From an uncultured Gemmatimonadales bacterium (GTDB taxonomy: Bacteria > Gemmatimonadota > Gemmatimonadetes > Gemmatimonadales > Gemmatimonadaceae): a stretch of DNA of 64,000 nucleotides. The notes below the pieces were generated by a model. That model ran no database searches. It was not told the origin of the DNA and saw only the letters and a program-made list of their open reading frames with translations. The DNA lies in assembly GCA_963701965.1 (NCBI GenBank), contig OY969695.1:192001-256000 (forward strand), written 5' to 3'. Made by a program: the position numbers and the translations under genes. The number at the start of each line of letters is the position of its first letter. Within the stretch, counting starts at the first letter, position 1. Shown here piece after piece: positions 48,615-49,900 of this stretch.

Positions 48615-48683
48615 CTCTAGCGTTCGACATGAGCGGCGGCCGCAGTCAAGTGCAGCTTGCCGAAGGACGTCCGCTCGATGGAG
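48615..48683 (-). repeat. attC split by IS110 (remainder at 49851-49859)
   Basis: CTCTAGC GTTCGACATGAG...CTCGATGGAG, then IS, then GAGTTAGGT. Confidence 0.9.
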
Positions 48684-48698
48684 CAACTGTGTCTCAAG

Positions 48699-49670
48699 TC
48701 AAGTGCTCCTGGATGAAGTGAGAACCGCATCGGTGCGCCAGGGTGCCTGATCGCGGACGATAGCGTTGAGGATAGTGAGTAGCTTGCGCATGCAGGCCAC
48801 GATGGCGACCTTCTTGGGCTTGCCGGCTTCAACCAGCCGGCCGTAGAAGGTCTTGATGACGGGGTTGTGACGGATCGCCGTCAGCGTGGCCATGTAGACC
48901 ACGGCGCGAACCTCGCTGCGGCCTCCCCATGTGCGTCGAACTCCCTTGCGCTTGCCCGAGTCATCGGCCAGAGGCGCTACGCCCACCAGCTTGGCGATCT
49001 GACGACGCCCGAGACGACCCAGCTCCGGCAGCGCCGAGGTCAGTGTCAGGATCGTCACCGGCCCCACGCCTTGCACGCTGTCGAGCAGTTCCTTCTGCCG
49101 CTTGAAGTGCTGCTCAAGGTGTTGATCGATGTCACCGTCGATGTCCTGCAGCTGCTTGTCGAGCGTCTTGATCACGCTGCGGATGCTGCGCACCGTGCGC
49201 GCGGTGGCACCCTCGAGCCGGTTGGACTCGGCCACACGCATGTCTAGGAGCTGACGGCGTCGCGTCATCAGGGCCGCCAACAGCTCGCGCTCGGGATCGG
49301 CAGGCAGCGTGATGTACTTGTGCCGATCCTTGTGCCGCGCCAGCACGTCGGCGAAGTCGCGCAGGCAGCGGGCGTCGACTCGATCGGTCTTGGCCAGCAC
49401 CCCCATCGACTTGGCGAACTCGCGGGCCTGGCGCGGGTTTACCCGCGCTACACTGAGCTGCGCTCGGTGCAGCGCCGTCACCAAGCCACGCTCGTAGCCG
49501 CCGGTGGCTTCGACAACCACGAGGTCTGCCTGGCTCTCCTTGGAGCTTCGCGATCAGCGCGTCCCATCCCGAAGCGTCGTTGTCGACCCGCAGATCAATG
49601 TCGAGAAGGTGCACATCAAGGTGCTCCTTGCTGACGTCGATACCTGCGTTCGGACGCGTCGCCTCGCTCG
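48699..49670 (-). CDS. IS110 bridge recombinase (frameshift ~49540; start uncertain)
   Basis: [38 protein letters not shown]. Confidence 0.9.
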
Positions 49671-49830
49671 CTACCCTTCCTTGCGAATGCATGTTCATCA
49701 TCGACAACTGTTCGGGCTACACGGTTGGATAAGAACGGGCCAATGCGTTGACCTAATGCTCCATCACGAGCTAGAACTCAGAGGGGTAACTGGTTTGGCG
49801 CATCGACCACGAAACTACGGCACTGCTGTG
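49670..49830 (-). ncRNA. Predicted bridge RNA (ends approximate)
   Basis: Four guide segments matching target and donor junctions in IS621 order. Confidence 0.8.
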
Positions 49831-49900
49831 CCTACTTCGGAAGATACAAGGAGTTAGGTCGCACCTCGGCTGCCGCGATACGCTCTTGCCCGTGTGGCTA

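Follow-up and report, generated by a model that had tools for sequence, protein, structure and literature searches.

A mobile element of the IS110 group sits inside an integron attC site on the minus strand of contig OY969695.1 (assembly GCA_963701965.1, from an uncultured Gemmatimonadales bacterium), and the locus prompts one to ask if the element's own RNA directed it there. The window, meaning the whole stretch of DNA analyzed, comprises 64,000 nucleotides (positions 192,001 to 256,000 of the contig). A preliminary description made from the letters alone had proposed an IS621-like element with a bridge RNA programmed against attC. We conclude that this is a frameshifted IS110-group copy whose IS621-type left-end guide motifs match the conserved ACCC-CT-CCATC of a betaproteobacterial attC family, and that it was very probably inserted by bridge-RNA-guided recombination. 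The array, the interrupted site, and the element are laid out as follows.

31760 to 52502, minus strand: cassette array of ~17 attC-like repeats of one family
49901 to 50197, minus strand: DUF1330 cassette gene, preceding the left attC piece
49851 to 49859, minus strand: left part of the split attC, consisting of the R'' box ACCTAAC (49859-49853) and the spacer's first two bases, TC
48615 to 48681, minus strand: right piece of the attC, with L'' (48680-48673), L' (48634-48628), and R' (48621-48615)
48682 to 49850, minus strand: IS110-group element including both CT cores, with the same ends in relatives
49849 to 49850, minus strand: left CT core
48682 to 48683, minus strand: right CT core
49844 to 49848, minus strand: right donor TGTAT, overlapping the -10 hexamer TATCTT (49846-49841)
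48684 to 48690, minus strand: left donor ACAGTTG, the element's final 7 nt, repeating the guide at 49711-49705
48697 to 48702, minus strand: -35 hexamer TTGACT, brought to 17 bp from the -10 by the predicted circle junction alone
49540 to 49700, minus strand: recombinase gene, 5' piece, with a GIDVS motif and in-frame ATGs at ~49700-49692 within the donor loop
48699 to 49540, minus strand: recombinase gene, 3' piece in a different frame, with VVEATG, KTDRVDA, and DDSG motifs (PF01548 and PF02371)
42521 to 42593, minus strand: right-end remnant of the same element, 73 bp, 98.6% identical, at the same nucleotide of a second attC

The attC repeats of the array have complementary arms in the order R''-spacer-L''...L'-spacer-R', follow single genes in one orientation, and occur nowhere else in the window's assembly beyond the 31.7- to 52.5-kb array. 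The element (1,167 bp from 49850 to 48682, counting one CT core) interrupts one of them within the 5-nt spacer separating R'' from L'', as the preliminary description had it: the R'' box and TC lie to the left, and the L'' arm lies to the right, where the flank continues CCATCGAGC and receives 68 bits from a model made from 11 attC copies that stand uninterrupted in the window. The R' of this site reads GCT, deviating from GTT. A hand-made attC score failed to distinguish targets from controls, and a covariance model was used instead. The duplicated CT reported to bound the element is present at 49850-49849 and 48683-48682, and the same dinucleotide core occurs at both junctions in the window and in relatives. 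Two features went unrecorded in that description, namely, the remnant at 42593-42521, which makes two insertions of this element at the same attC position within the window, and a break in the recombinase frame near 49,540 that splits the catalytic domains over two frames.

Relatives such as L126, L124, and L004 carry an intact recombinase, and for the family we identified a DEDD RuvC domain (PF01548) together with a Tnp domain with a catalytic serine (PF02371). Intact L126 scores 210 bits against NF033542 (cut-off, 140), its PDB matches are IS621 and ISCro4 only, and residues D11, E60, D102, D105, and S241 are all aligned. The identical frameshift occurs in a copy of 99.66% identity (4 substitutions) in another genome, at a different attC. 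That long-read assembly introduced the frameshift in error, and that this copy is in truth intact and autonomous, is unlikely: its carriers are two assembled environmental genomes only, and short-read contigs of relatives lack it, but those contigs represent relatives of 88 to 95% identity rather than this allele, the same break recurs in the second copy at its different attC, and it does not lie within a long homopolymer. The simplest reading is that this copy is not autonomous and moves in trans, a shared assembly error being possible; it could then move only given enzyme from an intact relative. With the queries used, no intact, trans-acting sister was found in the window's assembly (G000) or in G062.

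The element's non-coding ends measure ~150 to 170 nt upstream of the recombinase gene and 15 nt downstream, and the upstream end holds the putative bridge RNA.

49738 to 49808, minus strand: predicted target-binding module, with an outer stem (49808-49799 with 49747-49738) and an inner hairpin (49779-49768, GAGT-TCTA-GCTC)
49782 to 49790, minus strand: left target guide GTTACCCCT, 9 nt, its effective part being ACCC plus the core; TACCCCT at 49788-49782
49759 to 49765, minus strand: right target guide GATGGAG, followed by the handshake dinucleotide CA (49758-49757)
49703 to 49711, minus strand: left donor guide ACAGTTGTC, containing ACAGTTG (49711-49705)
49678 to 49688, minus strand: right donor guide AT-(TC)-GCAAG with the handshake GA, split as in IS621; GCAAG at 49684-49680

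The earlier reading had placed TACCCCT, the hairpin, GATGGAG, ACAGTTG, and GCAAG at these positions in this order, and all are there; the right donor guide, with its split, and the two handshake dinucleotides also fit the IS621 structure (PMC11208158). Taken singly, the guide motifs are not rare (each occurs in 1 to 16% of mononucleotide shuffles of the left end), and the claim is therefore carried by their order, which none of 200,000 shuffles reproduced for the four together, and by covariation. Folding the left end, which had been suggested as a check, was unremarkable for the single sequence (z = -1.3; the left guide pairs with the 3' end), whereas the target-module stem is paired in 98.7% of 304 cells across 19 sequences, with compensatory changes at four pairs. 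None of the slid controls, and 0 of 500 shuffles, reached a covariation score above that of the stem; the 19 sequences are related, so that 0 of 500 is not a probability (L003, L026, and L033 were mis-windowed and excluded from this alignment). An Rfam search gave no match over the element. The donor guides match the circle junction in all members with this scaffold, with one donor mismatch in L002, and are nearly invariant, which makes this a match rather than covariation. Joining the ends yields TTGACT, 17 bp, and TATCTT, and by sequence the 17-bp spacing of this putative promoter recurs in 18 of 20 distinct junctions (TTGAC-N-17-TAT(C/G)TT). Eight sequencing runs, which yielded contigs of relatives only, contained no RNA, circle junction, or empty-site read.

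Several variations of the left end were seen alongside. The recombinase's open frame runs across the donor-binding loop (49700-49678), so that guide RNA and coding sequence overlap, and in 25 of 31 distinct sequences the sole ATG, GTG, or TTG starts fall inside this loop, a placement that may point to autoregulation. A palindromic insert of ~140 nt (GGCTGTGG...CCACAGCC) lies upstream of the target loop and makes the left non-coding end longer in L005, L006, L010, L014 to L019, L116, and L129, whose guides differ, and in L008 the left end of the element is tandemly duplicated (36 bp).

Whether guides and insertion sites change together was read from relatives (the best 80 of 432 confirmed from a genome scan, plus 29 loci from a relatives search), among which ~33 proteins of 70 to 100% identity have one common RNA scaffold. 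We removed L087 from the covariation set (different scaffold) and scored L027, whose left flank was mis-picked, as a miss; L089 and L097 (genome G012) underlie no claim. Tabulating flanks, as the preliminary description had advised, showed that the 7-nt right guide tracks the site: the core and the right flank together form its reverse complement, perfectly so in 35 of 39 distinct pairs. Collapsed to nine different guides, 44 of 45 positions match, compared with 18.3 when permuted (1 in 200,000; P = 5e-6). Three of the four imperfect pairs are single mismatches, and the fourth (L037) adjoins another IS's end. A right guide longer than 7 nt is not claimed, position 8 being Watson-Crick in 4, wobble in 20, and neither in 14 of 38. 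For the left guide, positions 1 to 7 match in 14, 13, 8, 25, 33, 30, and 37 of 39 pairs (positions 4 to 7, P = 0.0002; positions 1 to 3, P = 0.03 and mostly unmatched). The left guide had been read as matching attC, and this holds near the core, over only ~4 nt plus the core, and not for the first three of its nine positions; with matching confined to the vicinity of the core, the effective address is about ACCC-CT-CCATC (~11 nt). The window's own target has one mismatch within the effective left guide, in line with the single further mismatch noted earlier.

Copies sharing the window's guide were collected by a metagenome scan that selected on the guide-region pattern alone, not on flanks. 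Twenty-five of its 30 matches have the scaffold, and the other five (L115, L117, L123, L130, and L136) were chance matches and were dropped; among the 25 are four same-guide loci without recognizable ends, representing two distinct remnants. No viral contig matched the pattern, and a scan of 401 genomes of the family gave G061 only, plus one match showing no left end. In the resulting set (metagenome copies plus the window, L001, and two Methylibium contig ends, L146 and L150), a strict R'' box stands at the expected offset in 15 of 17 distinct left flanks, the other two being near variants, and ACCC is matched perfectly in 15 of 17. All 10 distinct right flanks start the L'' arm, reading on GA past the guide, and nine continue it. 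An attC-model match adjoins 8 of these 10 right flanks, the remaining two being truncated attC without a model match, and none of 21 loci with other guides. The R'' box and the bases past CCATC lie outside the guide, so this is attC context beyond a mere guide match, and the outcome that would have told against the preliminary description, same-guide copies mostly outside attC, did not occur. The soil samples that supplied the insertion sites are related, and the sites are not wholly independent of one another. Some loci do share flanks (e.g., L110/L120/L132), and insertions in attC spare genes, as would be expected if one old insertion had spread with its cassette or insertions elsewhere had been purged. 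Such inheritance or survival bias is nonetheless very improbable as the source of the attC association: it is largely refuted by the 17 upstream flanks, all different, that meet the element at one and the same nucleotide, guide changes are mirrored by target changes across nine guides, and there are two separate sites in the window and at least two in G061.

G061, Methylibium rhizosphaerae, carries an intact recombinase, an intact IntI, the same attC family, and at least two separate insertions of the element. The 11-nt target occurs there in 60 copies, compared with 1 for the reversed control and 0 to 1 in four other genomes, and all 27 distinct sites read run on into the L'' arm, 20 of them also passing the strict R'' pattern. 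The genome contains a large cassette array in which the target 11-mer is spaced at ~0.5 kb, and several intI sequences. As the great majority of perfect matches are attC, a preference for attC can be accounted for by the guide alone in a host with this attC family. In G000, by comparison, the sites matching perfectly on the right and with no more than one mismatch on the left number 34, of which 4 are vacant attC and 30 are non-attC; this leaves room for a hairpin gate like that of ISPpu10, or for selection. A dual recognition, in which the guide is needed and the attC hairpin or neighboring conserved bases act as a second filter, as reported for ISPpu10 and the REP stem-loop, is a possibility we rate as rather less likely than not. 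The short 11-nt address and tolerant left guide repeat the asymmetry described in the available text on ISPpu10 (bioRxiv 10.64898/2026.03.19.712850), both insertions in G000 are in attC despite the 30 other near-matches, and every target seen for the clade is a palindromic repeat. On the other hand, sequence alone can explain the bias in G061 (60 versus 1 control), 15 of the 17 left flanks have perfect ACCC, attC would likewise be favored if insertions in genes were selected against, and G000 may not be the true host genome.

Compared with IS621 and ISCro4 (PMC11208160, PMC11208158, and PMC13626964 in their available parts; PDB 8wt6 and 9t56), the element shares the CT core, the TGTAT right donor, the upstream non-coding end, the order of left target guide, hairpin, right target guide, and then left and right donor guides, the split right donor guide, handshake dinucleotides in the exchange-favoring state, a junction promoter (one spans the circle junction of IS621; PMC11208160), and the DEDD and serine residues. 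It differs in its protein (only ~31% identical), in its target (attC, not the REP of IS621), in a right-shifted address of 4+2+5 in place of the 7+2+2 of IS621, in a reading frame that opens within the donor loop, and in the frameshift of this copy. "IS621-like" thus suits the RNA layout, donor, and core, whereas the protein is nearer ISEc32 (L153) and ISKpn42: L126 is 47 to 49% identical to ISEc32 and an ISKpn42-like protein (labeled from its N-terminal sequence in the source file of PMC11187229) and ~31% identical to an ISCro4/IS621-like protein. This nearest named branch has the same ends and the ACAGTTG donor guide; its target guides differ, its start codon follows the donor loop, and one member, L159, is inserted in IS3-like sequence and not in attC.

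The attC-targeting elements described in print belong to the IS1111 group (ISKpn4, ISPst6, ISPa21, and ISPa25; PMC11187229, PMC3001079, and PMC11616780). In line with the preliminary description, attC targeting was found for this group only in what is available of these papers and PMC9229058; older papers on attC-inserting IS, ISfinder, or bioRxiv supplements may list an IS110-group case. Like ours, these are RNA-guided IS110-family elements inserting near the attC 5' end, and their insertions have been proposed to immobilize cassettes. Membership in this group, leaving nothing different from print, would follow from the same broad family and target class (PMC11187229), yet we regard it as close to excluded by architecture. 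The IS1111-attC elements have a downstream non-coding region, subterminal inverted repeats, antisense orientation, and reversed guide order, and our element has none of these: its long non-coding region is upstream with 15 nt downstream, the longest exact inverted repeat between its terminal 40-nt stretches is 5 nt, its bottom-strand guide precedes the top-strand guide (the IS110-type order), and its tnp lies on the cassette strand in sense orientation, whereas ISPa21 and ISPst6 are antisense to cassettes (PMC3001079). Identity to the IS1111 members IS4321/IS5075 is 23% over 149 aa, and these fall outside the clade (SH-aLRT, 100) in a quick tree that includes no named IS1111-attC protein (ISKpn4/ISPa21/ISPst6). 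Independence from the IS1111 group, as first proposed, accordingly rests on architecture and this identity.

Other systems offer partial parallels. ISPpu10 has a stringent right guide, a tolerant distal left guide, and a palindromic target like our element, but that target is REP, with a tested stem-loop gate, and the available preprint text (bioRxiv 10.64898/2026.03.19.712850) does not mention attC. Two recent preprints mention neither attC nor integrons. Group IIC-attC introns likewise use attC as a landing niche but are retrohoming ribozymes on the antisense strand with an unrelated mechanism (PMC3001079). In the available text of Durrant 2024 (PMC11208160), attC appears in one reference title only; among the supplementary targets listed are unlabeled sites centered on GC-CT-AACG, resembling R''-register attC, and one CCCCTCCATC site, which is not attC.

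Within the clade, the spacer-register guide of the window occurs on three poorly resolved branches among members targeting REP-like repeats, and a separate 11-row branch with guide GGGTTAG/CGGTTAG is inserted inside the R'' box (CT-AAC); 4 of 9 such R''-register loci with long flanks have an adjacent attC-model match. The targets of sister lineages are the R'' box or REP-like repeats, and the direction of retargeting is not readable from the quick tree (in which L083 and L093 are misframed long branches). Insertion in the R'' register leaves TGCTAAC and that in the spacer register replaces R'' by ACACAGT, so that, given R box pairing (PMC5027507, as far as available), the box is predicted to be kept in the former and lost in the latter. 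Distant relatives (~50%) with CT-AACG targets are only partly attC-like and were not counted. Relatives in G038 (~54%; L082, L095, and L100 to L107) have guide GCGTTAG and are inserted at CT-AACGC after TGACGCC-like repeats; the sites of the 12 copies there are not clearly attC, and we did not accept them as attC insertions.

The attC family that the earlier description called "this host's" is betaproteobacterial and occurs in many hosts, and the assembly may be chimeric. The first ~320 kb of the contig differ in tetranucleotide usage from the remainder, ending near the only 16S gene (344 kb), which reaches no more than 80% identity with plasmid-borne rRNAs, betaproteobacterial ones included, and the window genes look proteobacterial. 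The window may be a foreign piece or a mis-join, which weakens the G000 site census. The integrase gene survives only as an N-terminal fragment (55915-56229) abutting dnaE2, with no intact IntI nearby, and the array is therefore probably frozen anyway.

The array and the DNA beside it hold further features. A second, unrelated IS110 (45832-47499; gene 46035-47456, plus strand, 473 aa), ISPpu9-like by sequence resemblance, has entered, in antisense orientation, the R'' box belonging to the attC at 45752-45830 and has CT on both sides, and an end similar to this element's adjoins the R''-register element in L037. Two cassettes upstream of our element, 50302-50538 is a cassette with an R67-type dihydrofolate reductase (dfrB family, trimethoprim resistance; PF06442, E = 3e-49). 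An IS3-family element (50681-51846) lies in the array beside a truncated attC (51856-51925), the stretch 54035-56229 holds a group II intron with reverse transcriptase between the array and the truncated intI, and further group II intron pieces lie at 60759-61052.

By analogy with IS621, the element would excise as a circle whose junction would assemble a sigma70 promoter (TTGACT-17-TATCTT). The donor loop of the expressed RNA would read this junction, the target loop would read ~11 nt of duplex attC (4 nt left, the CT core, and 5 nt right), and a DEDD/serine tetramer would catalyze strand exchange at CT. Insertion would kill the attC, because the R'' box comes to lie at a distance of 1.17 kb and the element end has no AAC triplet. 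A broader reading, which we offer tentatively and hold to be somewhat doubtful as a whole, is that IS110-family RNAs, several of them programmed separately, have converged on one attC family as a niche and act on the integron in opposite ways. A spacer-register guide would remove the R box and act as a reversible RNA-guided lock on cassette shuffling, and the R''-register guide of the sister clade would rebuild the box (TGCTAAC), making the IS cassette cargo; sense insertion would put the bridge RNA under the array promoter, a start codon in the donor-binding loop would let enzyme binding stop the enzyme's own translation, and broken copies would be moved in trans.

The mechanism itself was already known; the addition is an IS110-group lineage aimed at a target class so far described for another branch. 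With it, the natural targets of bridge RNAs, which had comprised REPs and the attC sites entered by IS1111-type elements, come to include attC read by the IS110 group. A single RNA scaffold bears nine target guides, with proteins of 70 to 100% identity and real targets that can be read, and so provides a natural reprogramming series. This series makes testable whether IS insertions freeze or ride integron cassettes, a matter on which experimental evidence is described as limited (PMC11616780, available in part), and whether short guides need a DNA hairpin as a second determinant; in the cultured Methylibium rhizosphaerae C1-9, element and IntI are both intact and vacant targets number in the dozens. 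Judged from the sequences, a second branch of the IS110 family has likely re-aimed a known RNA-guided mechanism at integrons.
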